From positions 192,792-256,791 of the forward strand of contig CAVXUZ010000004.1 of assembly GCA_963765125.1 (NCBI GenBank): a stretch of DNA of 64,000 bases, given 5' to 3'. Shown one piece after another: positions 3,558 through 31,086 of the stretch. The stretch is from an uncultured candidate division WWE3 bacterium (GTDB lineage: Bacteria; Patescibacteriota; WWE3; UBA101185; UBA10185). The notes beneath the pieces were generated by a model, which was given only the letters and a program-made list of their open reading frames with translations, made no database searches and was not told the DNA's origin. Position 1 is the first letter of the stretch. Every line of letters starts with the position of its first letter. Made by a program: the position numbers and the translations under genes.

Positions 3558-3565
3558 TAGGGGGT

Positions 3566-4466: not shown

Positions 4467-4486
4467 CTTTACGTGCACAGCATGTA

Positions 4487-4525: not shown

Positions 4526-4541
4526 TAAAATACTAACTATC

Positions 4542-15115: not shown

Positions 15116-15519
15116 GGGGATGACCAGGATTTGATTGAGGGTAAAAACTATGAGAGCAAGCCGAAGTGATAGGATCTTCGAAAAAAATCTATCAAAAAAT
15201 AAGTGCTGATGAATTCGCATTCCAGCCAGCATACGCTTACGCTTAAGTAAGCATATGTGTCGGGGGACTTTAGGTAAATCCTAAATACTCTGAGGTTCTG
15301 CATTTACTCACCTGAAGGATTTGCAAGAGCATAATAAAATCAGGTTACAGAGCGTTTGTACGTTGACTACTACAGCGCTGTCACCGAAAGGAAATGTCTT
15401 AGGAAAAGATTAACGGTTTGTGAAACACCCTACTTTTCTGAATTAAGATTTCACTAAGCTTGTAAACTTTTGTAATTCGAGCTTTCAAGACGGGGGTTCG
15501 ATTCCCCCCATCTCCACCA
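15116..15519 (+). ncRNA. ssrA: tmRNA (ssrA)
   Basis: 5' GGGGAUGACCAGGAUUUGAUUGAGGG (compare E. coli GGGGCUGAUUCUGGAUUCGACGGG). 3' GACGGGGGTTCGATTCCCCCCATCTCCACCA gives a T-arm plus acceptor with a G3:U70 pair and encoded CCA. Internal tag ORF 15205..15243 (GCT GAT GAA TTC GCA TTC CAG CCA GCA TAC GCT TAC GCT TAA, ADEFAFQPAYAYA*). Sits directly downstream of smpB. Confidence 0.75.
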
Positions 15520-15528
15520 GAAAGCAGA

Positions 15529-15556
15529 AAAACACCTACAGAGGTGTTTTTTGTTT
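15529..15556 (+). terminator. rho-independent terminator after tmRNA
   Basis: ACACCTACAGAGGTGT hairpin followed by TTTTTTGTTTTC. Confidence 0.5.
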
Positions 15557-15661
15557 TCTTATGGAAAGGAATCGAAAGCCGCAGGCACGACGGTGCCGAG
15601 GCGGGGTCGACGGGCGAGCCAGCAGGCGAGAACCGGTGACCGATTCCCCCCATCTCCACCA
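15557..15661 (+). repeat. tmRNA-associated 3'-end-duplicating element
   Basis: Contains antisense T-loop segment GGAATCG (15568-15574), GC-rich core GGGGTCGACGGGCGAGCCAGCAGGCGAGAACCGGTGACC, then an exact 21-nt copy (15641-15661) of the tmRNA 3' end CGATTCCCCCCATCTCCACCA (original at 15499-15519). Confidence 0.45.
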
Positions 15662-15812
15662 AGGAAAAAAGGCGAGTGCTAGCAAAGTACGCGCCTTTTT
15701 TTCTTTATGACTGGGAGAGTTAAATCTCATACGCCGTCACAGTCCGTTAGCACTCTTGTTTTAATAGCCCCCTACTTATTTAATAACTAACAGCGCGCAA
15801 ATAAAATAATTT

Positions 15813-15908
15813 TGGTGGTGGAGGATATCGCCTGTCGGTACAGAATCTTGTTTGATAAGCAGAGAGTCGGAAACGATTGAGGTTCAACTCCTTTATCCTC
15901 CGCCACCA
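15813..15908 (+). other. 96-nt long hairpin with tRNA-like T-loop and CCA end (pseudo-tRNA or related 3'-end element)
   Basis: 15-bp terminal stem TGGTGGTGGAGGATA/TATCCTCCGCCACCA with one G-U pair. Interior has a TCG-GAAA-CGA tetraloop hairpin and a T-arm-like GAGG-TTCAACT-CCTT. The 3' end resembles the tRNA-Ser 3' ends in this window. No acceptable anticodon arm could be folded. Confidence 0.3.
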
Positions 15909-16227
15909 TTAAGAAATAAGCGATTAAAATTTACTTGCAAAAATATTTTTGTTAGAATTGCGGTAGCTTATCAAACAGAGTGAGCGAAAGCTCCAGTATT
16001 TGTAGAAAACCCTTCGAGAGAGGGGTTTTCTCGTTTACGTTGATGTATTTCACAATAACCTACAGCAGCTTACTAAAGTAATAACTGGCGCGCATTGTTA
16101 ACCAATAACCTTCCAATTTCCACTAAAGTATTATTTATTTTGGAGTTTTTGTATTTCTTGTTTAAGGCGTGCCATCTCTAACTCTCTATCTACCATAAAC
16201 ATTTCTAAGTTTGTTGATAATTTAGCC

Positions 16228-16671
16228 GTGCCCTTGCAATTAGTAGCAAACAGAAATAAATCAAAAGTTGTTATTGAGTCTGTAGATCAAAATATAGAAA
16301 TTACAACAGACCAAGAAAAAATATCAGAAGTAATTTATAACCTCGTAGACAACGCAGTAAAGTATGGAAAAGAGGAACAGACCATTACTGTAAGTGTTAC
16401 ATCTGATGCAAATCAAAACGTAACATTTTCAGTTAGAGACCAGGGTAAAGGCATAACAGATGATAAAATCTCTAAGTTATTTGGAAAATTTTCACAACTA
16501 GAACCCTCGCTAAGAAGATCGCAGGATGGGACAGGTCTCGGCCTTTACATATGTAAATTAATAGTTGAAAAGTTAGGAGGAAAAATAGATGTTGAAAGTG
16601 AAATAGGCAGAGGATCGAGATTTTTCTTCACACTTCCCCGCGAATTTTCAGGCGACGAAGCAACGTTATAG
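16228..16671 (+). pseudogene. histidine kinase C-terminal HATPase_c fragment (no HisKA/sensor; GTG start)
   Basis: 147 aa with the N-box NLVDNAVKYG and G-boxes DQGKGI and GTGLGLYICKLIVEKLGG. The upstream in-frame region is open for only 42 codons from a TAA, with no Met and no HisKA domain. Confidence 0.55.
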
Positions 16672-16714
16672 GTCATTACATCTGTAGGTTAATGTTGCTG
16701 TGGTGACGCGCGGC

Positions 16715-16743
16715 TTGACCTAGTAGCAACTATAGGGTATAAT
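16715..16743 (+). promoter_or_regulatory. strong sigma70-like promoter
   Basis: TTGACC (16715-16720), 17-nt spacer, TATAAT (16738-16743). An AGGAGG-like RBS precedes the ATG at 16786. Confidence 0.5.
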
Positions 16744-16785
16744 TCCAATTAGCTTTTTACTATTCAAAAAAAACCACATATACAA

Positions 16786-17067
16786 ATGGAGGAAGAGATG
16801 AAAACAATCTGGACTAAAGTAGAGCCAGGAGCACAAGCGGCGATTGGTTTTTTAGCGGCGTACGTGCTTATGGTAGTCTATTCGGTGCTGACTAAAAACG
16901 TCGTCACCGGTGGGAATTTAGTGATTATGGTTCTAGGCGGTCTTGTCGCCGGATTGATCTATAATAATAGGTCAACACGAACAATCTTCTGGTGCCTCTT
17001 TGGCTCCTTAATGTTTGGCATAATAAGTGCACTCGCAGAGGCAGGTGGTATAGGATCTTTGTTTTAG
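16786..17067 (+). CDS. small membrane protein (3 TM), hypothetical
   Basis: 93 aa, hydrophobic, with good promoter and RBS. Confidence 0.4.
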   Translation: MEEEMKTIWTKVEPGAQAAIGFLAAYVLMVVYSVLTKNVVTGGNLVIMVLGGLVAGLIYNNRSTRTIFWCLFGSLMFGIISALAEAGGIGSLF

Positions 17068-17075
17068 TACCACAA

Positions 17076-17125
17076 AAAAGCCGTGAGCTTGGAATACAAT
17101 TCCCATCTCACGGCTTTATCTTTTT
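17076..17125. terminator. bidirectional terminator between convergent genes
   Basis: AAAAAGCCGTGAG...CTCACGGCTTT hairpin flanked by an A-run and a T-run. Confidence 0.5.
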
Positions 17126-17132
17126 CACATAA

Positions 17133-17957
17133 CTAATTTTTATTTACAGCTACTAAAGAAGCCTCGTCCTCGTAAATATAAAATACTTCAAACCCATTTT
17201 TTTCTAAAAACTTTCTCATCGTTTTATCGTTGTCTTTTTCAATTTCATGGCATTCGATCACAATGTATTTAATCCCTTTTAAAATAGTTTTATTAAGATT
17301 AAAAAGCACATTGTACTCTGCACCCTCAACGTCAATTTTCAATAAATCGATACTTTTCAATCCTGATACCCTCATGATTGTTTGAAGAGACAGACACTCA
17401 ACGTCGTAGCTCTCGTTATTTTGCTTACTGGCGCGCTTTTCGTAAAGTGTGTGCCCTGCTGTGAAGCCGTTTGTCTTATAGAATGTTTTAGTACAATCTT
17501 TTTCCCAAACTGCATTTTTTAAAACTTTAATATTTTTTGAAAGAGAGTTTAGTTGAATGTTCTTTTTAAAGTGTTTGTAATTATCTGCCTCTGGTTCAAG
17601 AGCAACTACTTTTATATTAGAAACCAATTTTGTATAGAGTAAAGAGACGTAACCTTTATGTCCTCCGAGGTCGACCATTGTTTTAATTCTTCTCAGCTGT
17701 ATGTATTTATTGTTGTAGTACTTATCGCAAAACACCTCTCTAATTATTTGTTTATCTCCCCAACCGTTAGTTACAGAAATCTTTAGCCCGTGTACTTTTA
17801 AAACTTGCCCCTCTTTACCTAGTTTAAATATTGTTGGTAAAAGTAATTTTATGTAGCACTGAATATTGAGAAAGCATTTAAGCTCTCTAATCACCAAACC
17901 AATGTTTCTTGAAATGTTATTTTTTCTCATAGACGCGAAGCTACCATTATAGCTCAT
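17133..17957 (-). CDS. FkbM-family SAM-dependent methyltransferase
   Basis: 274 aa with VDLGGHKG (SAM-binding glycine loop) and KIDVEGAEYNVL (FkbM motif). Confidence 0.7.
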   Translation of the reverse strand: MSYNGSFASMRKNNISRNIGLVIRELKCFLNIQCYIKLLLPTIFKLGKEGQVLKVHGLKISVTNGWGDKQIIREVFCDKYYNNKYIQLRRIKTMVDLGGHKGYVSLLYTKLVSNIKVVALEPEADNYKHFKKNIQLNSLSKNIKVLKNAVWEKDCTKTFYKTNGFTAGHTLYEKRASKQNNESYDVECLSLQTIMRVSGLKSIDLLKIDVEGAEYNVLFNLNKTILKGIKYIVIECHEIEKDNDKTMRKFLEKNGFEVFYIYEDEASLVAVNKN

Positions 17958-18009
17958 CTATTTAAAAATTGTGATAGTTTGAAGTTTCTAGCTAGATTAT
18001 ACTTATCCT

Positions 18010-18780
18010 ATGGTTAAAGACGTGATTTTTAAAATCTACAATTACTTGATAAATACAGCGTTTTCAGAGCCTAGGAATTATAAAGTGATGTCAGGGCCGA
18101 TTAAAGACACATTTATCTGTCTTGCGCCGCGTCACGGTATAAAAAAGATTCTCGGTAGCTATGAGCCTGAGATTGTTAATTTAATGACGCAAAAGATTGG
18201 GGTTGGTGATGCTTGCATCGATGTTGGCGCGCACGTGGGGTATATAACGATGGTAATGCGTAAACTGGTCGGTGTGGAAGGCGAAGTTTACGCATTTGAG
18301 CCGATTAAAGAAAACTGTGAGTGCATTGAAAGGTCGGTTGTAAAAAACAATTATAAGAACGTTACAGTATTAAACTACGGTCTTGGAGAGAAAAACCAAG
18401 AGATGAGCGCCCACGTTTTTAATGATAGTAATATGGTGAATTTCTCTGATTCTGGGTTTAAAAATTATAGTGATGACAAAAACAGCGATACGTTCATTGT
18501 TAAAACTCTAGATAGCGTAGACGAGATCGTCGGACTACAGCGTCTTAATTTTATAAAAATCGATGCTGAGGGGTATGAAAGCAAGATTATTGAGGGCGCA
18601 CGGGGCGTTTTGCAAAGGTTTGGCCCTAAACTACTAATAGAGGTACATAATGCAGATAATTTTAATAAACTAAAAACCCTGCTTCCAGAAATTGGCTACT
18701 CGCTTTTTGACCTTCACGGCGTTCAGATTAAGAGCGACGCGTCCTTTGAAGGCATAATTCACATCCTCGCAACAAAATAA
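18010..18780 (+). CDS. FkbM-family SAM-dependent methyltransferase (divergent paralog)
   Basis: 256 aa with CIDVGAHVGY and KIDAEGYESKII. Confidence 0.7.
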   Translation: MVKDVIFKIYNYLINTAFSEPRNYKVMSGPIKDTFICLAPRHGIKKILGSYEPEIVNLMTQKIGVGDACIDVGAHVGYITMVMRKLVGVEGEVYAFEPIKENCECIERSVVKNNYKNVTVLNYGLGEKNQEMSAHVFNDSNMVNFSDSGFKNYSDDKNSDTFIVKTLDSVDEIVGLQRLNFIKIDAEGYESKIIEGARGVLQRFGPKLLIEVHNADNFNKLKTLLPEIGYSLFDLHGVQIKSDASFEGIIHILATK

Positions 18781-18918
18781 TCCCTAGTAATAATAGAATG
18801 CTGGGCCTAGTTTTTGCCAGCGCACTACTTATAATATAGGTTAGTTTGTAGGCGCCACTACAGGCTACGAGCCTAGTTATAGCTGTAGCAACAGTAAATA
18901 GAAAATTGTGGATAAACC

Positions 18919-19632
18919 ATGGAAAACCTATTGATAACTCTTTTTCCAACAAAATGCCAGTTTTGTAATAAAAATATGGGTGCGATTTGTTACGAATGCA
19001 TTTTAAAGGCAAGGCCGGTGTATCAGTACTTTTGTATAATCTGCGAAAAACCCTCGATAGAAGGTAAAACACACTCTCTTTGCCACAAACAAGGCTGTCC
19101 CTCGTCAATTTTCAGCCCATTTAAATATTCGGGTGTGATAAGACAGTGTATTAAAAAGGCTAAATACTCGTCTAGGCTGTTTTTTCCTCTAAAACGCTTT
19201 ACGCGAGAGGGTATGAAGCTGTTTTCAAAATCAGGCATTTCTTATGAGGAGCACCTTGTTGTACCGATACCGTTGAGTTACCGAAAATACAAAGAAAGAG
19301 GGTTTAATCAGGCAGAAATCATTGCTGAGGCTGTAGCTAAGGAGTTGAAGCTAAACTACACAACTAGGGCACTGTATCGCTCTAGGGATACCACTGCGCA
19401 GCACGCAAACTCCAGAGCTGAACGTTATAAAAACCTTGAAAACGCCTTTATCGTGAAAAATCCTATTATAGTAGCGGGTAAAAAGATTCTTTTGGTGGAC
19501 GATATATGCACGTCTGGGGCTACATTTTTAACAGCCGCGGAGTGTTTGTACAAAGCTGGTGCTGTAGATGTTGCTTGTTTCTCACTGGCCAAGAAATTTC
19601 TTAAAAACAGACATTTGCTTGGTGATTTATAG
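18919..19632 (+). CDS. comF: ComF-family protein (competence, phosphoribosyltransferase domain)
   Basis: 237 aa. N-terminal Cys pairs (CQFC...CYEC...C...C) and a C-terminal PRTase motif ILLVDDICTSGATF. Confidence 0.7.
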   Translation: MENLLITLFPTKCQFCNKNMGAICYECILKARPVYQYFCIICEKPSIEGKTHSLCHKQGCPSSIFSPFKYSGVIRQCIKKAKYSSRLFFPLKRFTREGMKLFSKSGISYEEHLVVPIPLSYRKYKERGFNQAEIIAEAVAKELKLNYTTRALYRSRDTTAQHANSRAERYKNLENAFIVKNPIIVAGKKILLVDDICTSGATFLTAAECLYKAGAVDVACFSLAKKFLKNRHLLGDL

Positions 19633-19634
19633 CT

Positions 19635-19663
19635 TTGTTATAAAGCTTCAGACGGGTTATAAT
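19635..19663 (+). promoter_or_regulatory. sigma70-like promoter for tRNA-Ser(GCT)
   Basis: TTGTTA, 17-nt spacer, TATAAT (19658-19663), about 30 nt upstream of the tRNA. Confidence 0.45.
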
Positions 19664-19694
19664 GTACCGGCGCCACGCGCTAACTGTGCAGTAT

Positions 19695-19781
19695 GGAGGG
19701 TTGGCAGAGTGGTAATGCAACGGCTTGCTAAGCCGCGACCGTGAAAACGGTCCGTGGGTTCAAATCCCGCACCCTCCGCCA
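19695..19781 (+). tRNA. tRNA-Ser (anticodon GCT), type II with long variable arm, CCA encoded
   Basis: Acceptor GGAGGGT/ACCCTCC, anticodon loop TTGCTAA, variable hairpin CCGTGAAAACGG, T-arm GTGGG-TTCAAAT-CCCGC. No downstream 3'-end duplicate. Confidence 0.8.
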
Positions 19782-19788
19782 CCAACAA

Positions 19789-19820
19789 AGTCGTCCAGCA
19801 ATTTATGTTGGACTTTTTTT
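19789..19820 (+). terminator. terminator after tRNA-Ser(GCT)
   Basis: GTCCAGCAATTTATGTTGGAC hairpin followed by T8. Confidence 0.5.
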
Positions 19821-19908
19821 GTTGCTGATGTAACGCTGTGTTGGGATTTGAGCGGTACGCCTCACACTCACCCGCCCTTTAATCAGCACCGTATGCTAGT
19901 ATCTTAAT

Positions 19909-20130
19909 ATGGATTTCAAACCGGGAATTTATCAACACTTTAAAGGCAACAAGTACTTAGCAATCGGTGTAGCAAAGCACAGTGAAACTTTAGAGGAGTT
20001 TGTTTGCTATATATCTCTTTACGATAATAATGAAAGTAAAATTTGGGTAAGGCCGCTTTCGATGTTTATGGAAGAGGTTGACATCGGGGGTGTTAAAAAA
20101 CCTAGATTTACGTTTATAAGTAATTATTAA
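19909..20130 (+). CDS. DUF1653-family protein
   Basis: 73 aa with GIYQHFKGNKY, matching the DUF1653 G-Y-HYKG-Y signature (from memory). Confidence 0.55.
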   Translation: MDFKPGIYQHFKGNKYLAIGVAKHSETLEEFVCYISLYDNNESKIWVRPLSMFMEEVDIGGVKKPRFTFISNY

Positions 20131-20213
20131 ATTATTTTCAGAATATAAAAAAACCACCTTGGGGATGTGTTATAACACTTCCTTACGGTAACTGTTGGGC
20201 GAGTTAACTCCGA

Positions 20214-20456
20214 TTAGCATACATTCACAGGGATCGACATGTAAGCGTCTATATTTTGTAAGGACACAGCATATTCCGAAGGGAATTTTTCGATCTTATT
20301 TGGAATCACTCCCCAGCCTTCAGGTAATTCAAACTTCGAATCGGACGGAAGGGAAAAATTTGCCACGTACCTCTCTTTGTAGTTAATTAGGTAGAACTCG
20401 CGTACCTCAGCGCTACCCTTTGTTATCACCGTAACATCTACAGGTTTAATATACAT
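20214..20456 (-). CDS. hypothetical small protein (track ORF extends to 20579, but that overlaps the divergent Nudix 5' end; the internal ATG at 20456 is preferred)
   Basis: MYIKPVDVTVITKGSAEVREFYLINYKERYVANFSLPSDSKFELPEGWGVIPNK. No domain recognised. Confidence 0.3.
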   Translation of the reverse strand: MYIKPVDVTVITKGSAEVREFYLINYKERYVANFSLPSDSKFELPEGWGVIPNKIEKFPSEYAVSLQNIDAYMSIPVNVC

Positions 20457-20495
20457 TGTAATGACCTCTCCTTTTTTAGTTTTTGTTGTGATAAG

Positions 20496-20846
20496 GTGCT
20501 TATCGGTAAGAAAGTGGTTGATAAAAATCATTTTCTTAGTGGCGGTTGGCATATACCGGGCGGGCACCTGAACGAACACGAGGGCGAAGAGCAGGCTTTG
20601 CTAAGAGAGTTTAAAGAGGAAACAAACCTTAATATTATAATTGTTAAAAAGCTCTGTAGTCATTGTGTTAAGGACATCAATACGTTTGTTAGTTACTTCG
20701 TTTGCTCTGCTAATTCTTTAAATGCAGTTCCGGGAGATGATCTAGAAGAGATTAGTTTTGTTGAAAAGAACAAAGTTGTTGAGCTTTGTGATGAGCGGGT
20801 TACAAGCTTGTGGCCTAAAAAACTAATTGATTTTCTATCGTCGTAA
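20496..20846 (+). CDS. Nudix hydrolase, apparently N-terminally truncated (GTG start)
   Basis: Nudix box GGHLNEHEGEEQALLREFKEETNL. Only 16 residues precede the GGW..PGG, and the upstream in-frame region has no Met, so the gene is possibly disrupted. Confidence 0.5.
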   Translation: MLIGKKVVDKNHFLSGGWHIPGGHLNEHEGEEQALLREFKEETNLNIIIVKKLCSHCVKDINTFVSYFVCSANSLNAVPGDDLEEISFVEKNKVVELCDERVTSLWPKKLIDFLSS

Positions 20847-20927
20847 CCATACCTGATACTGAGGTATTCACAGACTTTACATATTAAAAAAGACTCCCTT
20901 AGTTTTTATACTTTGGGAGTCGGTAGG

Positions 20928-21197
20928 CTACTTAAGTTCGATGATTTCTACTATACAATTGCGTTTCGGATTTTTTATATTAACAATCGCTAAACGATAA
21001 CTTGAATTGCAGCGTGTTTTCTCCAAAGTGTGCCAAAGAACGCTTATTGCCAGGTGTATTACTTTTTCTGGACTCTTTTGTAACCACGTTCCGATGTTTT
21101 CTATCTTTTGCCAAATATCACTGCCAAAGGTTACGTTAAGTTTCTTTGTCATCGTACTCTCCTTGTTTTGTGGTTTGTATAGCAGGTTTTTTGACAT
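20928..21197 (-). CDS. hypothetical small protein (possible ribbon-helix-helix)
   Basis: 89 aa. KKLNVTFGSDIWQKIENIG resembles an RHH N-terminus; weak. Confidence 0.3.
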   Translation of the reverse strand: MSKNLLYKPQNKESTMTKKLNVTFGSDIWQKIENIGTWLQKSPEKVIHLAISVLWHTLEKTRCNSSYRLAIVNIKNPKRNCIVEIIELK

Positions 21198-21299
21198 TAT
21201 AGCACAAGATTTTTCAGCGCAATCACCAAACCATCTATTATTGACTTGTTAAAACACATCAATTTCCAACGAAAACAAAATGAGCTATACTAACTTAGT

Positions 21300-21890
21300 A
21301 TGAAAGTAACTGATGTAACTGATTTTGTAGGCATTACACACACACGAAAAGACATGCCCGTTGAGGCAGAAAAAAGTTCTTTTGACAGAGAAAATCTCGG
21401 CCCTAAAAAAACTTTAATGTCGTGGGTGGCTGTACCTAACATTGGAGCAAACAATTTAGACCCAAGATATAAAAGAGCAGTCTACGCGGCAGGTTTTATT
21501 ACAATTCTGATTCTTGTGATGATGCAAGAATTTTGGTTGATCTTTGTTATCGCAAGTCTTGTTTTTATTGTGCAGGTGATGGGCAAGATGAAGAACAAGG
21601 AGGAGAAGTATGAGATTACAACGCATGGGTTACACATCGAGACAGACTTTTATTACTGGGATGAGCTTATAGACTTCTTTTTTACAAAAAAGTTTGGAAA
21701 TGATCTTTTAGCTGTAGATATGAAAAAAGGACTTACGACTAGATTGTTTTTGGGTTATCAAGCAGAGGACAGGAATAAACTTATTGAAATACTGAACAAG
21801 CACATTAGGTATTTAGAAAAGGAACCAGACAATTTTGTTGACGCTACTTACTCTAAAGTTTTAGACAAGTTTGATTTTAAACAAAAATAG
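21300..21890 (+). CDS. hypothetical membrane protein (2 TM)
   Basis: 196 aa with a TM hairpin GFITILILVMMQEFWLIFVIASLVFIV, then a soluble C-terminus. Confidence 0.4.
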   Translation: MKVTDVTDFVGITHTRKDMPVEAEKSSFDRENLGPKKTLMSWVAVPNIGANNLDPRYKRAVYAAGFITILILVMMQEFWLIFVIASLVFIVQVMGKMKNKEEKYEITTHGLHIETDFYYWDELIDFFFTKKFGNDLLAVDMKKGLTTRLFLGYQAEDRNKLIEILNKHIRYLEKEPDNFVDATYSKVLDKFDFKQK

Positions 21891-21933
21891 TAGTATTTTC
21901 CCTTCACAACAAGTATTTGTCTGTTTCAACTAT

Positions 21934-22010
21934 GCACCCGTAGTTCAGTTGGATAGAACGCAGCGTTGCGGACGCTGAGGTCGGGGGTTCAAGTCCCTCC
22001 GGGTGCGCCA
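21934..22010 (+). tRNA. tRNA-Arg (anticodon GCG as parsed), CCA encoded
   Basis: Acceptor GCACCCG/CGGGTGC, D GTTC/GAAC, anticodon stem CAGCG/CGCTG, loop TTGCGGA, T-arm GGGGG-TTCAAGT-CCCTC. Confidence 0.75.
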
Positions 22011-22156
22011 GGAAATTGTGTATGTGCCAAAGGCACATAAGCAGTTTCCTTGTGAGTCGTAAGGACTTGAATGGCGCAGGCGCGGCGGCGCCGAGTCGGG
22101 GTCGACAGGCGCATCAGCAGATGCGAACTGGTGACCAAGTCCCTCCGGGTGCGCCA
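22011..22156 (+). repeat. tRNA-Arg-associated 3'-end-duplicating element
   Basis: Hairpin TGTGCCAAAGGCACA, antisense T-loop GGACTTG (22063-22069), core GGGGTCGACAGGCGCATCAGCAGATGCGAACTGGTGACC, then an exact 21-nt copy (22136-22156) of the tRNA 3' end CAAGTCCCTCCGGGTGCGCCA (original at 21990-22010). Confidence 0.45.
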
Positions 22157-22220
22157 AAAAAATGCCGCAGGATTTAGGATATAATTCCCATTTCCCACGG
22201 CGATAAAACATTTACAGATC

Positions 22221-22590: not shown

Positions 22591-22718
22591 ACTCATTCTC
22601 CTTATTATCTATAGGTTAGATAGGATTTTACACCTTGCTTGCAAATGTTTCAAATCACCAACCCAATGCTATTTTATTCTGCCCTGTTATTGTTAGAATA
22701 TATTAAGTAACCTGCCCT

Positions 22719-24422: not shown

Positions 24423-24611
24423 GATCTACAATATCGGGTTTCGGAAAAGTAAACGCAAAAATCATAAGCACCACCAGAACGAGAATAATAAAAATAATAA
24501 AGTGAGAACTCTTCATACCTAATTATACATGCTAAAATTTTGTTATTGCAAAATATGCTATATTATTGCGGTTAGTTTGAGTTTTTGATTTGGTGATTTA
24601 TTGTCTTGTGG

Positions 24612-24688
24612 GGGCCGTTAGCTCAGTTGGCTAGAGCGCTACATTCGCATTGTAGAGGTCGGGGGTTCGATTCCCCCACGGTCCACCA
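24612..24688 (+). tRNA. tRNA-Ala (anticodon CGC), G3:U70 present, CCA encoded
   Basis: Acceptor GGGCCGT/ACGGTCC with G3-U70, anticodon arm CTACA-TTCGCAT-TGTAG, T-arm GGGGG-TTCGATT-CCCCC. Confidence 0.85.
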
Positions 24689-24707
24689 GAATGCCTCAAA
24701 ATTGTAC

Positions 24708-24800
24708 GGAGGAGTACCGAAGCGGTCATACCGGGCTGGTCTCGAAAACCAAGCGTGTACGTAAGTGCGCACGTGGGTTCGAATCCCACCTCCTCCGCCA
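24708..24800 (+). tRNA. tRNA-Ser (anticodon CGA), type II, CCA encoded
   Basis: Acceptor GGAGGAG/CTCCTCC, anticodon loop CTCGAAA, long variable arm, T-arm GTGGG-TTCGAAT-CCCAC. Confidence 0.85.
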
Positions 24801-24964
24801 GTGGAAAAGCGAAAAGTGTAGTTTAATACTTTTCGCTTTTTCATTTGTGAAAAGGATGAGAACTCTGCGTTAGCAGGGGACGACAATTGATACTATAGTG
24901 AGCTTGTGAACTATAGAGCAATTGGTAGCGAACAAAGTGAGCGTTCATCCCACCTCCTCCGCCA
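24801..24964 (+). repeat. tRNA-Ser(CGA)-associated 3'-end-duplicating element (variant without the GGGGTCGAC core)
   Basis: A 49-nt terminator block (24801-24849) nearly identical to the one after tRNA-Ser(GGA) at 31012-31060. Then a bulged antisense segment AGGATGAGAAC, an ACTATAG direct repeat, TAGCGAACAAAGTG and an exact 18-nt copy (24947-24964) of the tRNA 3' end ATCCCACCTCCTCCGCCA. Confidence 0.4.
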
Positions 24965-25041
24965 GAAAAGAAGACGTTTGAGACAACGTACTTTATTCTT
25001 TTTAATTGTGAATTATCCACTGACTAAGTTAGTTAATGTCG

Positions 25042-26106
25042 TTAAGCTTTAATGCCGGAGATTTTACGTTGCTTGTCCTGTACACCCGCGCTAGCGTCCT
25101 CAAATGTTTTTTTGCTTCGTGTAATAATATTTTCAACGCCTTCAGCAACAACCGTAATAGCGCGTTTCTGCTGAGTATAGAGATCATGAGCAGCATCTTC
25201 CCTGCCAACATCTATGTAACCGTTGCGCCCTCGCGTCACAAAATATTTTAGGTTAGTTTCTGTTGTTTGCAACTCTTCATGGATTGCCCCAGTATTTTTT
25301 CTTAGTACATCTTCGTGGGTAGCAGAAAACTGTGCTATATCCTTTATGAGCTTAGGTGTATCCGAGTTAGGCTCTTGCGAAATCAGTTTTTGAATAGACA
25401 TTTCAGCAGATGCGCCTGCAGATTTTGCTTCTGTAGCAACAGCACAAAGTTTAGTGGCGGCAATTTCTATTACATCGTCGTCTATGGTGTGTGACAAATC
25501 AATGTGCTCATTTTCATGATTATTTTTAACTTTTTCAGCAACTTTACTTAGAGAAAGCTCGCGAGAGCGGCCCTTTTCAACATATTGGTGGTATATCTCA
25601 ATCTCATTCTGCTGAGATTTTACCCACCCATCTAATGTTTGGACGTGTGTCTTTACATCTTTAAATATATCGTTGGCGTCATTAACCACATCTTCGTGAC
25701 CTCTGGCCATCCTTTTAGTGTCTAATTGTCCACGAAAACCAGCACCCACTCTACTCTGATGGTTATCTGCAACTGTGTTGAAGCTTCTTGCACCCCTTTG
25801 AGTTTCTTCAAATATTCCACGTGTTTTTCGGGAACTTTCTCCTAAGTTTTCTAACATCTTTCCGCCGGAAGTAACAAGGTCTTGTCTTATTTTATTACGT
25901 TGCTCGTTAGCTAGGTATTCGAAGGTTGTTGCACGTATTTCTTTTGGGGCATTTTTCTCAGCATCAACAAGGGTATCTTTTAAATACTCTAAAACAGCGT
26001 CATGAGGATTTTCTGTTTCAGTTAATTTTGTAATTTCAGATGCCAGTTGCCACTCTCCTGCATGCTCAGTTTCTATGTGGTTATTAAAGTTTTCCATATT
26101 CACCAA
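25042..26106 (-). CDS. hypothetical soluble protein (354 aa)
   Basis: Long acidic, helix-rich ORF with no recognisable motif. Confidence 0.4.
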   Translation of the reverse strand: MVNMENFNNHIETEHAGEWQLASEITKLTETENPHDAVLEYLKDTLVDAEKNAPKEIRATTFEYLANEQRNKIRQDLVTSGGKMLENLGESSRKTRGIFEETQRGARSFNTVADNHQSRVGAGFRGQLDTKRMARGHEDVVNDANDIFKDVKTHVQTLDGWVKSQQNEIEIYHQYVEKGRSRELSLSKVAEKVKNNHENEHIDLSHTIDDDVIEIAATKLCAVATEAKSAGASAEMSIQKLISQEPNSDTPKLIKDIAQFSATHEDVLRKNTGAIHEELQTTETNLKYFVTRGRNGYIDVGREDAAHDLYTQQKRAITVVAEGVENIITRSKKTFEDASAGVQDKQRKISGIKA

Positions 26107-26238
26107 TTATATAACAACCAATCTACGTTAGATACTTATCGAAATAGAGTATGTGTATTGTCTTAGTCTTATTTAATAATTAATGGATAGTTGAAAATAT
26201 ATTTTTCTACAGTACTCTATGTCAATGTCGGCAATAGG

Positions 26239-27126
26239 TTACTCAGACTTAACAAAAGCGTCTAGTTTACTAAAATCGTTAAATCGAGAGGGGTAGTTTT
26301 TCTCAACACTTTTATCTATCGCAATTAGGTAACCACGATAAATATCCATTTCCTTAAGCTCGTCTCCTCCTAAATAATCATGAAATCCCTGTAAACGATT
26401 GGTAATTACTATGTTTTCATTTCCGGTGCACTCACCTTTTGAAATGACTTCGCTTAGTTCATTAGAAGTTTGGTGCATAAAGTCTCTGATTCTATCGGTG
26501 TTCTCTAATTTAATCATCGCTGGGTCCTGACTTATTAAATGTACCAGCTCGTTTTTGATGGTGCTTTGTGCCTCTTCGGTGTTAACGAATCGCCTATTAA
26601 GAAGTTCATTAATAGTTTGTACTTCAGATTCGTCAGTAGTATAGATTTGACTTTTCTCATTTTTTAACAAGTTTATGGGTGATTTTTTTGTTGTAATTTC
26701 TGTCGCGTATTGTTCAGCAGCCGACATCGTACTTTTTTTAATGTATTGATCGGTAAAGTATTGCAAAGTATTAACAGAACCCAAAAAATCAACCAAGGTT
26801 TCATTTTTAATGTTGCCGTTTTCATCAAGCATTGGTTCAAAACCAGCTCCGGTTAACGATTCGGCGCTGTATTCACCTCTTTTAAATGATCTGAGTTCGT
26901 GGTCTAGCACGGCTGATTTGTAAAAAAGATCGACAAAGCTAGCCGCCCCGTCTTTACCTTCACCAACAAAATGATTTTTTATATTTTCAACCAACTCAGG
27001 AGATTTCTGATCCTCGAGCGTTTTAAGTAACTCATCATCTTTAGGACTATTTTCGGCTAATTTACTCTGATTTACAGCCTCGTGTAAGTCGGCAATGTCC
27101 CCATCAAGAGACTCGAATATATTCAT
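26239..27126 (-). CDS. hypothetical soluble protein (295 aa)
   Basis: Acidic; no recognisable motif. Confidence 0.4.
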   Translation of the reverse strand: MNIFESLDGDIADLHEAVNQSKLAENSPKDDELLKTLEDQKSPELVENIKNHFVGEGKDGAASFVDLFYKSAVLDHELRSFKRGEYSAESLTGAGFEPMLDENGNIKNETLVDFLGSVNTLQYFTDQYIKKSTMSAAEQYATEITTKKSPINLLKNEKSQIYTTDESEVQTINELLNRRFVNTEEAQSTIKNELVHLISQDPAMIKLENTDRIRDFMHQTSNELSEVISKGECTGNENIVITNRLQGFHDYLGGDELKEMDIYRGYLIAIDKSVEKNYPSRFNDFSKLDAFVKSE

Positions 27127-27194
27127 ATACGCGTATTATATATTAAAAAAACTCGCGTTAGTCTGTGTTTTCAGATTTTGCGCGAGTTTAATTC

Positions 27195-27503
27195 TTAAAT
27201 ACAATTTTTTGTTAGTCTATGTTTTATACGAAGAAGCCATGTCATCACAACGTACACCAGTGATAAAACAATAAACGCAACTATGGGATTTACGTATTTG
27301 AATTTTCCATAGTAGACCAGAATTGGCAACGTGGGTGAGACCAGCACAAGATAAATTAAGAAGTTTAAACACTTAAAGTATCTTATGAAGTCTTGAGGTT
27401 GCCCTTTGGTAAATGCTCTTTTCTTCGACTCGTATGCAATCAGCGCGGCTATAAATGCAATCAGCGCCGTGTTGCCACCTATAAGTAAGAGCCAGCCGAT
27501 CAT
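27195..27503 (-). CDS. small membrane protein (3 TM)
   Basis: 102 aa, hydrophobic; overlaps the upstream gene by 4 nt (ATGA). Confidence 0.35.
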   Translation of the reverse strand: MIGWLLLIGGNTALIAFIAALIAYESKKRAFTKGQPQDFIRYFKCLNFLIYLVLVSPTLPILVYYGKFKYVNPIVAFIVLSLVYVVMTWLLRIKHRLTKNCI

Positions 27504-27874
27504 TGCGATTTTCCTGCAGATATTTTAGACAGCAATGACTCTAAAAATAATCTTTGCTTTGTCTCAGTGTCGTTTGGGTAGACGTGAAGTATTTCACCTT
27601 GGTATTTCACCTCAGACTTTGCACCGGTTACGATCGAGACGTTGCCTATGATCATTTCAGGGTTTATGTTTGAGAGAGTTTCGACAACATATTTTGCCGC
27701 GCCGGTGTAATCAAAATCCGATCCGACTACAAGCAAGCCATCTGCATCAAGGCACGTCTTAGCTATATCGGTGCCACTTTTGGTGATATGAACGAGCTCT
27801 ACGTCTTGTCTTAGTTTTGAAAGTGCCTCAATAGTTTTATTGAGGTGCAAAATAACAATTCGTTTCTTTTTCAT
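27500..27874 (-). CDS. hypothetical protein (124 aa)
   Basis: MKKKRIVILHLNKTIEALSKLRQDVELVHI...VVGSDFDYTGAAKYV. A small alpha/beta-like protein; no family assigned. Confidence 0.35.
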   Translation of the reverse strand: MKKKRIVILHLNKTIEALSKLRQDVELVHITKSGTDIAKTCLDADGLLVVGSDFDYTGAAKYVVETLSNINPEMIIGNVSIVTGAKSEVKYQGEILHVYPNDTETKQRLFLESLLSKISAGKSQ

Positions 27875-27934
27875 TTTCTGCCTCCTGTTTTTAAGTTGCA
27901 GTGATTATACACCGAGAAATAGCCTGTAGCAAAT

Positions 27935-29491
27935 GTGTTCTGCAACAAAACGCACGTAAAAATTGTTATTATAAATACTATGAAAAGTAGGTATTTAAGG
28001 CTATTTATCGGGTTTTTGCTAATTTTGCTCTTTTCTTTGTTTTTTCTGCAAAAAATCAACCTCACAACTGCTGATTTAGGTCGTCATATTACTAATGGGG
28101 AGGTATTTGTTAGGTTTGGTAAGGTAGTTTCGACTAATTATTACTCATACACAGAACCAGACTTTCCCGTTGTGACCCACCATTGGTTAAGTGGCGTTAT
28201 TTTTTATCTCGTAAAGTCTGCCGTTGGATTTAACGGTTTGTCATTATTTTATGGTTTTATATCTGGGCTGACTGTTTTTATCTTTTTTCTCATTTCAAAA
28301 AGAAGATCCAACTTTGTAATTGCATTATTTTTTACACTGTTGTTAATTCCTCTGATGGCAAATAGAAAAGAAATAAGACCAGAAGGATTTAGTTATTTGT
28401 TTTTAGGATTCTACGTATTACTTTACGATTTATATTATTCTAAAAACATTTCATTTAAAGTGTTGCTAATTGCGCTTGTTGTTTCTCAAATACTTTGGGT
28501 AAACCTTCACATATTTTTCATTATGGGAATATTTATTTCAGGTGTGTTTCTTTTTGTGGAAATTCTAAAAGGTAAAAAGAATTCAATAAAAAATCATTTA
28601 ATAATATTACTATCGCTAATTATCGCCAGTTTAGTAAACCCCTATGGATTTGCAGGTTTGATTGAGCCACTAAATATATTTAAAGAATACGAGTACATGA
28701 TTATTGAAAATCAATCCATTTTCTTTATGCAAAAAAGAATTCCACAGTTTATGTATTTTGCTGTAGAGCTTGTATCAGTAATCTTTGTTGGTGTTGCTGC
28801 ACATCTGGCAACTGATAAACGAAGGTTCTCATACCTTGGTTTAATCATCATAAGTTTTGTATTTATGGTTTTATCGTTCAGAGCAATTAGAGGAATACCC
28901 ATGTTTGCCATGTTTTTAGCACCCGTATTGTCATTGTACGTATTTGAAAAATTACCAACCCTAAAAAATAAACTTACGATTCCATTGATGATAGTTTCAG
29001 CTCTCATGCTTATACCAAATTCAACATTTTCTTTTATGAGAACAGGATTTGGAACGGGGATTATTGACGGTGTAAATAGGTCAGCCGACTTTGTCAAAGA
29101 TAACAATATTGTAGGACCTGTGTTTAACAATTACGATATCGGAGGATTCATGATTTATAATTTTTTTGAGAAACTGCCAGTGTTTGTAGATAATAGGCCT
29201 GAAGCATATAGCGCCGAGTTTTTTAAAAATGTTTATGGACCTGCGCAAGCTGATAATAACTATTGGAATGAACTCGACGCAAAATATAATTTTAATTTAA
29301 TTTATTTTTACAGGCACGATGCAACGCAGTATGCTCAACCATTTTTAATAGAAAGAATAAAAGACGATAACTGGATTCCTGTATACGTAGATAATTACGT
29401 GCTGATTTTAATAAAGAATAACGAGGCAAACAGAGAGCTTATTGAAAAATATAAACTTCCAAAAGAAATGTTTGTTATAACTAAAGTATGA
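27935..29491 (+). CDS. polytopic membrane protein, GT-C-fold glycosyltransferase-like (PMT/ArnT-like) candidate
   Basis: 518 aa with about 11 N-terminal TM helices and a C-terminal soluble domain. Lies upstream of the ManC-like gene (4-nt overlap). Confidence 0.4.
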   Translation: MFCNKTHVKIVIINTMKSRYLRLFIGFLLILLFSLFFLQKINLTTADLGRHITNGEVFVRFGKVVSTNYYSYTEPDFPVVTHHWLSGVIFYLVKSAVGFNGLSLFYGFISGLTVFIFFLISKRRSNFVIALFFTLLLIPLMANRKEIRPEGFSYLFLGFYVLLYDLYYSKNISFKVLLIALVVSQILWVNLHIFFIMGIFISGVFLFVEILKGKKNSIKNHLIILLSLIIASLVNPYGFAGLIEPLNIFKEYEYMIIENQSIFFMQKRIPQFMYFAVELVSVIFVGVAAHLATDKRRFSYLGLIIISFVFMVLSFRAIRGIPMFAMFLAPVLSLYVFEKLPTLKNKLTIPLMIVSALMLIPNSTFSFMRTGFGTGIIDGVNRSADFVKDNNIVGPVFNNYDIGGFMIYNFFEKLPVFVDNRPEAYSAEFFKNVYGPAQADNNYWNELDAKYNFNLIYFYRHDATQYAQPFLIERIKDDNWIPVYVDNYVLILIKNNEANRELIEKYKLPKEMFVITKV

Positions 29492-30552
29492 ACATACTGG
29501 TATCAGCGGGAGGTCAGGGCACAAAAATCTGGCCTTTTAGCAGAAAATCAAGCCCAAAACAATTTCAAAAAATAATTGGAGAAGATTCTTCTTTTTCTCA
29601 CAATATAAAAATGCTTCTCACAAAATATAAACCCGAGAATATATTTATATCGACAAAGAAAATGTATAAAGAAATTGTGAGTGAGCAGGCTCGAAGCATT
29701 CCTACAAAAAATATTATATTAGAGCCCGACAGTGCCCAAGGACGCGGGCCGGGAGAAGGTTTTGCATTCTTATACCTGTCTATTCACGCGCCTAACGAAC
29801 CGTTTTCTATATTACAGTCAGATTGTATATACATAACTCCAGAGAACTACCTGAATATGTTAGAAGATCTAGATAATTTGGTTAAAAAAGAAAATAAATT
29901 TATTTCGGGTGGGCAAGTGCCGGCGTTTCCTGTTCTAGGAGTAGATTACCTTGAATTAGGCGAGAGTGTTAATAACCATAGCAATATATTTAAAGTAAAA
30001 AACTTTTTGGGTCGAAAAGAAGATTACAAAGAGACAGAAAAACTAATTAGCGAAAATAAAGTTGTAATACATATGAACATCAACACCTGGTACCCGGAGT
30101 TAATGTTAGAGGCTTACAAAAAATATAAACTCGCATGGTACGACTCACTGATGAAAATTAAAGAAGTTATTGATGATGCACAAGCAGTTGAGGAGATATT
30201 TAATAAAATGGAAAAAGGTTCTACCGAAGAAGTAACACAAAATATATTTAAAGATGGATATATTGTCATACCGTCGTTTAAATGGATAGATTTGGGAACA
30301 TGGGACTCAATATATAGACATTTTTCTCAAGAAGGAGATTTATATACAGAAGGAAACGTAGTCGCCTTAGACTCGTCGGGCTCATTAATAAAAAGTTTAA
30401 ATCCAAAAAAACTAATTGCAGTGCTGGGGTTGAAGAATATGGTAGTGGTAGATACTGACGATATCTTATTCATATCGCCAAGAGACAAAGTGAATAATAT
30501 TAAAAAAGTTCAAGAAAAATTGAAAAATAGTGGACTAGAAGAGTATTTATAA
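29488..30552 (+). CDS. mannose-1-phosphate guanylyltransferase-like nucleotidyltransferase (ManC/CpsB family)
   Basis: N-terminal SAGGQGTKIWPFSRKSSPKQF matches GGxGxRLWPLSRxxxPKQF; NIILEP as in ManC. Confidence 0.6.
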   Translation: MNILVSAGGQGTKIWPFSRKSSPKQFQKIIGEDSSFSHNIKMLLTKYKPENIFISTKKMYKEIVSEQARSIPTKNIILEPDSAQGRGPGEGFAFLYLSIHAPNEPFSILQSDCIYITPENYLNMLEDLDNLVKKENKFISGGQVPAFPVLGVDYLELGESVNNHSNIFKVKNFLGRKEDYKETEKLISENKVVIHMNINTWYPELMLEAYKKYKLAWYDSLMKIKEVIDDAQAVEEIFNKMEKGSTEEVTQNIFKDGYIVIPSFKWIDLGTWDSIYRHFSQEGDLYTEGNVVALDSSGSLIKSLNPKKLIAVLGLKNMVVVDTDDILFISPRDKVNNIKKVQEKLKNSGLEEYL

Positions 30553-30573
30553 TAATATAGAAAGGAAAAATTT

Positions 30574-30870
30574 ATGAAAGATTTTATAAAATTTATTAGG
30601 GAGCAGGGAGTAGCAGGACTCGCAATCGGCTTTATTTTAGGGGGAGCAATATCTTCTCTCGTCTCTTCGCTAGTAAACGACTTGATAAATCCGTTGTTAG
30701 GACTGGCACTAGGTGCAATCGACGGCCTCTCGTCTGCAGTTTTAAAAATAGGAACAGCAGAAATAAGATACGGTCACTTTATTGGTGCATTAATAGACTT
30801 TATAGTTATAGCGTTGGTAGTTTACTTCATATTTAGTAAACTTGCAGAGAAGTTAGACAAGAAAAAATAA
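30574..30870 (+). CDS. mscL: large-conductance mechanosensitive channel MscL
   Basis: 98 aa. FIREQGVAGLAIGFILGGAISSLVSSLVNDLINPLLG...IDFIVIALVVYFIFSKL...KKK follows the E. coli MscL pattern. Confidence 0.85.
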   Translation: MKDFIKFIREQGVAGLAIGFILGGAISSLVSSLVNDLINPLLGLALGAIDGLSSAVLKIGTAEIRYGHFIGALIDFIVIALVVYFIFSKLAEKLDKKK

Positions 30871-30921
30871 TTGGTTTGGTGAAGAGCGCGGTGTGATAGA
30901 ATTCTCAATTGAATAGTGCGT

Positions 30922-31011
30922 GGAGGGATGCGGGAGCGGTTTATCCGGCTCGCTTGGAAAGCGACGCGTCTCGAAAGGGACACGGGGGTTCGAATCCCCC
31001 TCCCTCCGCCA
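30922..31011 (+). tRNA. tRNA-Ser (anticodon GGA), type II, CCA encoded
   Basis: Acceptor GGAGGGA/TCCCTCC, anticodon loop TTGGAAA, variable arm GCGTCTCGAAAGGGACAC, T-arm GGGGG-TTCGAAT-CCCCC. Confidence 0.85.
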
Positions 31012-31086
31012 GTGGAAAAGCGAAAAGTGTAGTTTATACTTTTCGCTTTTTCATTTGTGTGAAGGGGATTCGAATAGCGGACTGAG
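31012..31086 (+). repeat. tRNA-Ser(GGA)-associated 3'-end-duplicating element (composite)
   Basis: Shared 49-nt terminator block, antisense T-loop GGATTCG (31066-31072), core GGGGTCGACGGGCGCATCAGCAGATGCGAACCGGTGACC and CGAATCC (31140-31146). Then a 25-nt insert containing TAGCGAACGAAGTG, followed by an exact 15-nt copy (31072-31086) of the tRNA 3' end CCCCTCCCTCCGCCA. Confidence 0.45.

Follow-up and report, generated by a model that had tools for sequence, protein, structure and literature searches.

Introduction

The RtT repeat of the tyrT-tyrV operon of Escherichia coli (Bosl & Kersten 1991, as cited in PMC4986893 and PMC7542023) is the evident relative of the elements described here, which lie behind transfer RNA (tRNA) and transfer-messenger RNA (tmRNA) genes in a 64,000-nt stretch of DNA from an uncultured candidate division WWE3 bacterium (assembly GCA_963765125.1, contig CAVXUZ010000004.1, positions 192,792 to 256,791; this whole stretch is referred to as the window). 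In Pasteurellaceae, members of the RtT family adjoin other tRNAs and have been detected on Northern blots (PMC4986893). Erwinia strains differ in RtT copy number, and the function of RtT is stated to be unknown (PMC7542023). In addition, mobilome sequencing under stress revealed raised coverage of the tyrT-rttR region (bioRxiv 10.1101/2024.07.17.603846).

Three other systems are relevant for comparison. The IS200/IS605 elements and their miniature derivatives (PATEs, and REP/REPIN with RAYT) are short and structured, show strand specificity, and rely on an enzyme supplied in trans. IS608 has a DNA guide adjacent to a hairpin; this guide base-pairs with the sequence to be cleaved or targeted, and it can be reprogrammed. 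Variants of the Mauriceville and Varkud retroplasmids of Neurospora have captured tRNA 3' ends with CCA, and their integration at a tRNA gene duplicates a segment of the tRNA; this system differs from the elements described here in that it is mitochondrial and needs an encoded reverse transcriptase. Finally, tRNA- and tmRNA-targeting islands (Islander-type islands, and the ssrA islands of Dehalococcoides; PMC3146451) resemble our elements in having a direct repeat of the tRNA or tmRNA 3' end at both ends, and in forming tandem arrays by repeated insertion. However, the elements of the candidate phyla radiation (CPR) are only 100-175 nt long, contain neither an integrase nor cargo, and have a conserved, folded interior and a segment complementary to the target, which we call the guide.

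An initial annotation of the window, made from its letters alone, had noted that four RNA genes are followed by a copy of their own 3' end, and had suggested that the intervening segments are related structured elements, either a functional structured RNA or a miniature element aimed at tRNA 3' ends, and not ordinary attL/attR scars. We find that the observation is real, that this reading is supported, and that the family is larger than first seen; it is neither an artefact nor a scar. The elements are widespread in Patescibacteria and were previously uncatalogued. They are not categorically new, as RtT is an evident relative, but they are phylogenetically remote from it and far more diverse in their targets. 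With moderate confidence, we interpret them as the counterpart of RtT: a protein-less, structured trailer module of about 100 nt that is read through from the tRNA gene and processed, and that is non-autonomous and has moved among tRNA genes.

Results

Four RNA genes of the window are followed by related elements

One tmRNA gene and five tRNA genes were identified in the window by ARAGORN and Rfam. The tmRNA gene and three of the tRNA genes are followed, on the same strand, by an element. The features are as follows.

15116-15519, + strand: tmRNA gene, first host gene (ARAGORN; Rfam RF00023, 126.9 bits)
15520-15558, + strand: spacer after the tmRNA CCA with a terminator-like hairpin (terminator-like site 15527-15552; fold)
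15563-15661, + strand: type-1 element 3' of tmRNA (cmsearch with model R1, 88.8 bits; three-way junction as minimum-free-energy fold; sequence)
21934-22010, + strand: tRNA-Arg(gcg) gene, second host gene (ARAGORN, Rfam)
22058-22156, + strand: type-1 element 3' of tRNA-Arg(gcg) (cmsearch, 95.8 bits; sequence)
24708-24800, + strand: tRNA-Ser(cga) gene, third host gene (ARAGORN)
24801-24849, + strand: spacer hairpin block common to both Ser loci with an element (48/49 identity to 31012-31059)
24850-24964, + strand: type-2 element 3' of tRNA-Ser(cga) (sequence; fold with closing helix)
30922-31011, + strand: tRNA-Ser(gga) gene, fourth host gene (ARAGORN)
31012-31059, + strand: spacer hairpin block 3' of tRNA-Ser(gga), counterpart of 24801-24849 (sequence comparison)
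31061-31146, + strand: type-1 element 3' of tRNA-Ser(gga) (cmsearch, 91.1 bits; sequence)
31147-31171, + strand: GA-rich 25-nt module TGCACAAAACTTAGCGAACGAAGTG, which splits the Ser(gga) copy (sequence; comparable splits in loci L017 and L044)
31172-31186, + strand: rest of the Ser(gga) copy, tRNA positions 62-76, CCCCTCCCTCCGCCA (sequence)

No element is present downstream of tRNA-Ser(gct) or of tRNA-Ala(cgc) (24612-24688), the latter of which precedes tRNA-Ser(cga).

The last 21 nt of the tmRNA gene (15499-15519), which are the counterpart of tRNA positions 56-76, are present again at 15641-15661. Similarly, the terminal 21 nt of tRNA-Arg(gcg) are found again at 22136-22156, the terminal 18 nt of tRNA-Ser(cga) at 24947-24964, and the terminal 15 nt of tRNA-Ser(gga) at 31172-31186. 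Reading of the sequence showed the first three copies to be exact and located where the initial annotation had placed them. The Ser(gga) copy also exists, but it had been positioned 100 nt too far upstream, at 31072-31086, which hold gaatagcggactgag; the described region should therefore extend to 31186.

The type-1 element behind tmRNA consists of the guide GGAATCG (15568-15574), the linker J1/2 with the sequence AAAG, the hairpin arms P2 (about 15579-15604) and P3 (15605-15641), and the copy (15641-15661). In the element behind tRNA-Arg(gcg), the guide GGACTTG (22063-22069) is followed by a core that extends up to 22136, and by the copy at 22136-22156. The guide of the Ser(gga) element is GGGGATTCG (31064-31072), its core extends up to 31140, and a partial copy, CGAATCC, occupies 31140-31146. 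These three elements share the core GGGGTCGACRGGCG-N13-GAACYGGTGACC, located at 15603-15641, 22098-22136 and 31102-31140, respectively; this pattern matches three times in the window and was not found in 100 shuffles. Thus, the core is present in three of the four elements, as had been described, but the claim that it abuts the copy does not hold for Ser(gga), where only the 7-nt partial copy is present and the 25-nt module separates it from the 15-nt copy.

The fourth element, located behind tRNA-Ser(cga), gave no match to model R1 and is referred to as type 2. It contains the guide GGATGAGAAC (24854-24863), three hairpins, one of which is TAGCGAACAAAGTGAGCG (24926-24943), and GTTC followed by the copy ATCCCACCTCCTCCGCCA (24947-24964). 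All four elements therefore contain the segment antisense to the T-loop that had been reported for them. The two Ser loci are additionally related, as noted before, by their spacer block (48 of 49 nt, a single indel apart), which in both cases starts directly after CCA, and by the motif TAGCGAACRAAGTG, found at 24926-24939 and 31158-31171.

The type-1 elements share a conserved three-way junction

Two alignments were used, A2 with 27 copies and A3 with 57 distinct sequences; R1 is the covariance model of the type-1 fold. Covariation was measured as the fraction of paired cells in comparison with slid-partner controls, as double changes per pair, and by shuffles. According to alignment and folding, the three type-1 elements of the window form a three-way junction of about 100 nt. 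It is closed by helix P1, in which the guide pairs with the first 7-13 nt of the copy. In A2, the linkers J1/2 and J2/3 are GAAUG and CGG. P2 has one base pair that alternates between C-G, G-C and U-A, a conserved G-N-A/G-A loop, and an upper stem that falls into two classes. P3 is composed of GGUC/GACC, a GA/GU loop, a 3-bp helix, a G/AA loop, a 6-bp helix and an AGCA loop, in this order.

In alignment A2, 86.6% of the cells are paired, compared with 30-38% for the slid controls, and double changes occur in 17 pairs. The corresponding values for A3 are 87.2% and 22 of 29 pairs, and for neither alignment did any of 500 shuffles reach the observed value. Covariation thus supports all three helices, in agreement with the co-varying stems proposed in the initial annotation. 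Some strongly diverged copies, e.g., L015 6120-6218 and L045 62-160 (loci are cited by number), have their stems fully replaced and keep the fold. The unpaired nucleotides are near-invariant across copies and the internal loops of P3 are invariant. Tandem G.A pairs stand in for Watson-Crick pairs in P1 (GGAU-GA / GA-AUCC) and P3b. Because these would be C.T mismatches on the complementary strand, the tRNA-sense strand is the folded strand.

The copy is local and the guide appears to be inherited

The copy spans C56 to A76 of the host tRNA, ends with CCA, and directly abuts P3 without an unpaired base. In 31 of the 42 unique elements it is identical to the adjoining tRNA at all 21 positions, and this includes the lineage-specific end GCACCA (L027/L056). 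The copies of the other 11 contain scattered point changes or interruptions in the CCA tail. The tail is therefore not strongly constrained, in contrast to the part contributing to P1.

The guide and the near-invariant GAA(U/C) behind it are jointly complementary to positions 53-62, and sometimes up to 68, of the intact T-arm, which is a longer match than that to the copy. In L026 and L027, the guide fits the tRNA and not the mutated copy. The element of L060 is located at Pro(tgg) and retains a guide of the Pro(ggg) type, which is mismatched with the tRNA of that locus, and the guide of the MEVX tmRNA element is of the GACUCC type and pairs via G.U wobble. From such comparisons, the guides look inherited. 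Moreover, P2-P3 cores at different tRNAs with unrelated spacers can be as close as 0-2 bases apart, e.g., those of L027 at Arg(gcg) and L092 at Arg(tct). Since copies are local, guides look inherited, and near-identical cores are found at different tRNAs, the copy would be made from the resident gene and not carried in; the same evidence rules out a classical element-borne tRNA 3' end.

The same genomes contain other element types, which have different interiors and copies that start at position 53, 58 or 65 (the window Ser(cga) element, L011, L027 and L028). Every copy of these types ends at CCA, and in most of the elements it again pairs with a segment further upstream. Across element types, the copy is 12-24 nt long.

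A separate observation concerns position 57, the first base after the junction C. In three independent second copies (L026 2272, L027 430 and L032 at about 2785) this position is a T; the tRNA has A or G, and the guide still fits the tRNA.

The elements are found in the CPR and differ in presence between related loci

An exact-pattern scan of one genome per species, comprising 185,579 species genomes, returned 35 loci. All matches with the 13-nt hairpin spacing (37-nt pattern) belong to the CPR, i.e., to WWE3, Saccharibacteria and an unclassified metagenome-assembled genome of the Patescibacteria group. A match in Adlerbacteria has a spacing of 12 nt instead of 13, and the remaining matches are chance occurrences in GC-rich genomes. 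A metagenome scan added 53 loci. With covariance model R1, 92 copies with 57 distinct sequences were detected within 575 kb of CPR DNA. The search for further copies that had been suggested was productive. Nearly every core is located 47-134 nt 3' of a co-oriented tRNA or tmRNA gene, or behind another element in a tandem array. The host genes of the 42 unique elements represent 20 kinds of tRNA/tmRNA; Arg(gcg), Arg(tcg), Gly(ccc), Pro and tmRNA carry elements in several genera in a syntenic context. None of the 92 copies contains an open reading frame (ORF), an integrase or a phage. We found no published description of these CPR elements, and a paper on tRNA group I introns of Patescibacteria omits them. 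A phage or plasmid origin was rejected, as there were no matches to the element in IMG/VR, INPHARED phages and PLSDB plasmids.

Related loci do show the differences in presence and absence that the initial annotation proposed to look for, alongside tandem arrays and decayed copies. The tRNA-Leu(gag) genes of L026, L021 and L033 are 100% identical, and only that of L026 is followed by an element. The strict pattern is found once on the 0.9-Mb MEWB contig (titled complete and curated) versus at least seven times in MEVX. Tandem arrays are present in L009, L025, L032, L045, L077 and L092.

The spacers vary as well, and their hairpins have been gained or lost between near-identical loci (L012 versus L074, and L006 versus L048). 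At tRNA-Arg(tcg), the hairpin AGAAATTTCGACAGGG precedes the element in L090 and L033 and follows it in L012; because of this variable position, no left limit of the mobile unit could be set. Spacer hairpins also act as separate modules (L006 5689-5739, L013 20-60, L041, L062, and window 24801-24849 and 31012-31059), and the hairpin AAAATGGCCGAAAGTCCGCAGGATTTGCGGACATTTTT recurs behind different tRNAs in different genomes.

Comparison with RtT RNA

When the elements were searched against the 4227 covariance models of Rfam, only tRNA and tmRNA reached the threshold, and no ribozyme family matched. Known self-cleaving ribozymes and other RNA families were accordingly discarded as candidates. One weak match recurred, that to RtT (RF00391), with 23 and 16 bits for L009 and 21 bits for L028, in both cases over the full length of the model (positions 1-130). 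In the opposite direction, when R1 was run without filters on E. coli locus L093, all eight annotated RtT copies were the top eight matches (E 0.003-0.07).

Behind each tRNA-Tyr gene of E. coli lie 3-5 annotated units, which RefSeq describes as "RtT sRNA, processed from tyrT transcript". The order within a unit is spacer hairpin, guide GGGGAAGGGU, GAGAAC, GA-rich hairpins, and the tRNA-Tyr 3'-end copy AUCCUUCCCCCACCACCA. The RtT consensus is GgGaaGGAUGAGAA ... AGCGaAGcgAGA ... CGucGCgucAGCgaCG ... AUCCuuCcCccaCCACCA, and the first and last of these segments are joined in a closing helix, which has 10 bp in the E. coli fold.

The CPR elements resemble RtT in several respects. Both occupy the 3' trailer of a tRNA gene, share its strand, and end in a copy of the host tRNA 3' end including CCA. 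In both, the fold is closed by pairing of the T-loop, T-stem and acceptor portion of the copy with a complementary segment further upstream. Furthermore, both have GAGAA(C/U) after the guide, with tandem G.A replacing UC/GA pairs, and GA-rich hairpins of the AGCGAAGCGAG type, and both form tandem arrays whose copy number varies between strains. Additional ties are the type-2 Ser(cga) element of the window, which starts with guide-GAGAAC as E. coli RtT does; the "v2" type-1 guides (GGAUGAGAAU); and the GAGCGAAGCGA module adjoining the copy in L017, L027, L044 and window Ser(gga).

There are also differences. CPR elements are mostly single units, whereas RtT forms long arrays. They are found at 20 kinds of tRNA/tmRNA, whereas the E. 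coli matches examined here are at tRNA-Tyr loci, and they belong to a separate and deeply branching bacterial group. We therefore classify the CPR elements as an RtT-like variant that is divergent and specific to the CPR, has the same architecture and falls below the curated threshold; the two probably share modules by descent.

Independently of this, we observed that part of the RtT interior, CTTCGACTAAGGTTCGA (L093 1340-1365), resembles the variable arm and 5' T-arm of tRNA-Tyr (TCGACTTCGAAGGTTCGA), so that an RtT unit looks like a tRNA 3' half with a large T-loop insertion. The CPR P3 strand GGGGTCGA may be a comparable vestige of a tRNA.

Islands and integrase genes near the elements

The initial annotation had envisaged larger elements with the same core plus an integrase. 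This expectation was not borne out: the two candidates, L029 and L044, are unrelated islands nested at the CCA end. L029 at first looked like a full-length version of 5 kb, with tRNA-Lys, a large serine recombinase of 602 aa, cargo, guide, junction and copy. It was rejected as an autonomous version, as it has its own inverted-repeat attP around CCACCA (TTCGGGGAACGTAATGTTA / TAACATTTTTATCCCCGAA form the bounds of the island) and lies upstream of the spacer of the mini-element. L044 is a 5.7-kb contig on which positions 482-5331 of the - strand encode a rolling-circle Rep (PF23343) and a serine recombinase truncated at its N-terminus, along with ORFs of unknown identity. The Rep gene stops about 14 nt ahead of the guide. 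A link between this rolling-circle Rep and the element was likewise rejected, as the Rep ORF crosses a CCGCCA junction into a spacer common to the plain mini-elements L067 and L083. Because their own junctions lie upstream of the spacers, L029 and L044 are nested insertions of other islands and not autonomous versions.

The recombinase of L029 (5381-7189) belongs to a big CPR family of large serine recombinases of 590-620 aa, which is also present in L036 (10001-11773) and L038/L039 (10001-11779). Genes of this family lie convergent to a tRNA gene, with which they overlap at its CCA end, and the associated islands carry restriction-modification and other defence cargo. No junction was found within 10 kb of the homologous recombinases at tRNA CCA ends in L036-L039. 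In L036 (11840-12110), a tRNA is apparently split, with its 3' half just upstream of tRNA-Val and its 5' half beyond tRNA-Ile(tat), which points to an intron within the anticodon region or to an insertion there.

Among the window ORFs scanned around the elements (about 26 ORFs from 46 kb onward were left out), there were no mobile-element genes; most are housekeeping genes or have no Pfam match. An HUH Y1 transposase is not among these ORFs, and a target duplication is present at the elements. The elements do have the direct repeat of the tRNA 3' end expected of an island scar, but neither an integrase, a remnant of one, nor island DNA lies between the repeats. They also do not conform to miniature inverted-repeat transposable elements: the sole inverted repeat is that between guide and copy, which varies with the tRNA, and the repeat length of 12-24 nt is not fixed.

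Genomic setting of the window

The chromosomal setting of the window is ordinary, with genes for SmpB (adjoining tmRNA), DnaG, sigma-70 and MscL. A 2H phosphoesterase/LigT-like protein (PF07823, PF13563), a family linked to tRNA-end chemistry, is encoded at 31209-31715, immediately 3' of the Ser(gga) element; this may be a coincidence. The DnaG primase is encoded by two overlapping ORFs, 32620-33318 (zinc finger and N-terminal core) and 33269-33925 (Toprim and DnaB-binding domain), which could reflect a frameshift, a sequencing error or a split gene. Two very large ORFs, 10640-14584 (1314 aa) and 5503-9060 (1185 aa), have no Pfam match, and three small genes resembling type IV secretion system pilins are located at 3566-4883.

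Discussion

The elements form a family with a conserved fold, a fixed position and orientation relative to their host genes, a locally matching copy and no ORFs; they vary in presence and array size and resemble RtT. From this we infer how the trailer module might be transcribed and processed, what P1 does and how the module spreads. The host CCA end is followed by a variable terminator-like spacer, the guide, P2, P3 and the copy of positions 56-76. In our model, the element would function in single-stranded form, with the polarity of the tRNA-sense strand. Its transcription most likely occurs jointly with that of the tRNA, by read-through from the tRNA promoter. By analogy with what is reported for E. 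coli rtT RNA, tRNA end-processing enzymes would then release a CCA-to-CCA unit. P1 would sequester the displaced 3' fragment, blocking its mispairing with the tRNA 5' half, and would at the same time provide a stable terminal helix with a tRNA-like CCA tail. The non-autonomous module would have moved among tRNA genes, with the copy deriving from the resident tRNA at each site and the guide being inherited, its mismatches being tolerated or later repaired. Tandem arrays may result from unequal recombination between the 20-nt repeats.

Several observations weigh against this interpretation. A terminator-like hairpin lies upstream of most elements and speaks against abundant transcription. A test of strand by counting G.U versus A.C gave no signal (6 versus 6 in P3, and 33 versus 34 in P1). 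CPR copies score 0-23 bits with RF00391, whose gathering score is 45 bits; the best relatives reach 21-23 bits, and the window copies give no match even at E<=10. The CPR interior is a three-way junction with a GGGGUCGAC...CAGCAG...GAACCGGUGACC arm, whereas RtT has about five hairpins, and it is possible that CPR elements and RtT are convergent or have only modular homology. The spacer is common to loci in some cases (the two window Ser loci; L044/L067/L083) and not in others, so that the evidence on whether the spacer belongs to the mobile unit is contradictory. An empty-site allele near enough to fix the insertion boundaries was not found, the orthologous flanks being too diverged, and no trans-acting enzyme for the element was identified.

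The elements might instead act as DNA. According to this explanation, which we consider doubtful, they are guide-programmed, non-autonomous DNA elements whose folded top strand, as single-stranded DNA, is the substrate of a trans-acting HUH/Y1 enzyme of the IS200/IS605-RAYT type or of another recombinase. The guide would pick the T-arm of a tRNA by pairing, and the 56-76 repeat would be generated from the target at insertion. Such a scheme would account for the guide plus GAA(U/C) fitting the intact T-arm (53-62+) better than the second copy, which begins at 56, for the guides of L026 and L027 that fit the tRNA only, for the copy being always local and the guide inherited, and for identical cores at different tRNAs. 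The upstream terminator-like hairpins suggest that transcription is not required, and in IS608, too, the guide and its cleavage site lie on either side of a hairpin, at the base of which they pair. However, there is no transposase or autonomous copy in the approximately 575 kb of CPR loci or among the window ORFs scanned, the latter lacking any HUH enzyme. IS200/IS605 guides are 4 nt with non-canonical contacts, compared with 7-13 bp in the CPR elements, and HUH elements make no target duplication, one of 21 bp being unknown for them. The many compensatory changes imply long-term structural selection and not a recent burst. In addition, copies start at 53, 58 or 65 and yet all end with CCA, which indicates an anchor at the 3' end of the gene or RNA instead of a fixed stagger and counts against this explanation.

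A bolder and equally tentative proposal, in which we place little confidence, would make the three-way junction the active core, perhaps a catalytic RNA, of a protein-less insertion module that can be directed to new targets. Its built-in guide would recognise any tRNA or tmRNA T-arm by 7-13 bp across the insertion point, and the module would acquire the 3' end at each site. If true, this would be a natural programmable, nucleic-acid-guided mechanism common to the CPR elements and enterobacterial RtT, and it would explain RtT.

It is unlikely that the elements are host-beneficial cis elements inherited vertically, such as a processing or stability signal of tRNA operons or a regulatory RNA, e.g., a modulator of the stress response as proposed for rtT, without mobility of their own and spreading only by duplication and gene conversion. 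Near-invariant unpaired nucleotides combined with covarying stems are a hallmark of functional RNA, the same tRNAs (Arg(gcg), Arg(tcg), Gly(ccc), Pro and tmRNA) carry elements in synteny in several genera, and cores are identical across genomes whose spacers cannot be aligned. On the other hand, copy number is highly variable (one on the MEWB contig versus at least seven in MEVX with the strict pattern), elements are present or absent at the same tRNA, copies can be tandem or nested, and 11 of 42 elements have a decayed or interrupted CCA tail. It would also leave unexplained why the 3' strand of P1 is the adjoining tRNA's own sequence.

Capture at the RNA level is very unlikely. The RNA of the element would dock to a mature tRNA via the guide, and a polymerase or ligase would join the tRNA 3' fragment (T-loop to CCA-OH) to P3; the chimeric RNA would be copied to DNA and enter the tRNA gene by homologous recombination, comparable to the Neurospora Mauriceville retroplasmid. 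In favour of it, both junctions correspond to the mature CCA end in every element type with copies of 12-24 nt, the copy begins exactly at the end of P3 without an unpaired base, the junction-proximal change from N57 to T recurs in three independent copies, and tmRNA is also a target. However, this scheme is entirely conjectural, none of the copies was found to have a reverse transcriptase in its vicinity, and the right-hand homology would amount to only 21 nt. The reported absence of group II introns from Patescibacteria (PMC13011429) also counts against it.

Ordinary attL/attR remnants of integrase islands or prophages at the tRNA T-loop, since reduced to their ends, would leave the classic T-loop-to-3'-end direct repeats, and CPR tRNA genes are indeed island targets (L029, L036, L038/39, L044), but this origin is hardly credible given that none of the 92 copies encloses an ORF, that the interior is a conserved covarying fold and not variable debris, that IMG/VR and the phage and plasmid collections contain no matches, that an element-borne 3' end could not serve 20 tRNAs while cores remain near-identical, that the L029 island has its own attP centred on CCA upstream of the spacer, and that the L044 island stops at the CCGCCA junction upstream of the spacer common to L067 and L083.

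RtT has been present for decades in Rfam and in the annotation of E. coli as a curiosity of one operon, of unknown function. The finding of the same design, in which a guide and a folded core precede a copy of the host 3' end, in ultra-small CPR genomes suggests that it represents an old and general class of tRNA trailers. The 57 distinct sequences and the many tRNA identities make the pairing rules, the origin of the copy and the question of action as RNA or as single-stranded DNA testable, and a new Rfam family could be founded on covariance model R1. In CPR genomes, programs that search for islands or annotate tRNAs can be misled by the displaced tRNA 3' fragments. If it is true that the guide directs insertion, the elements would constitute a very small programmable system.

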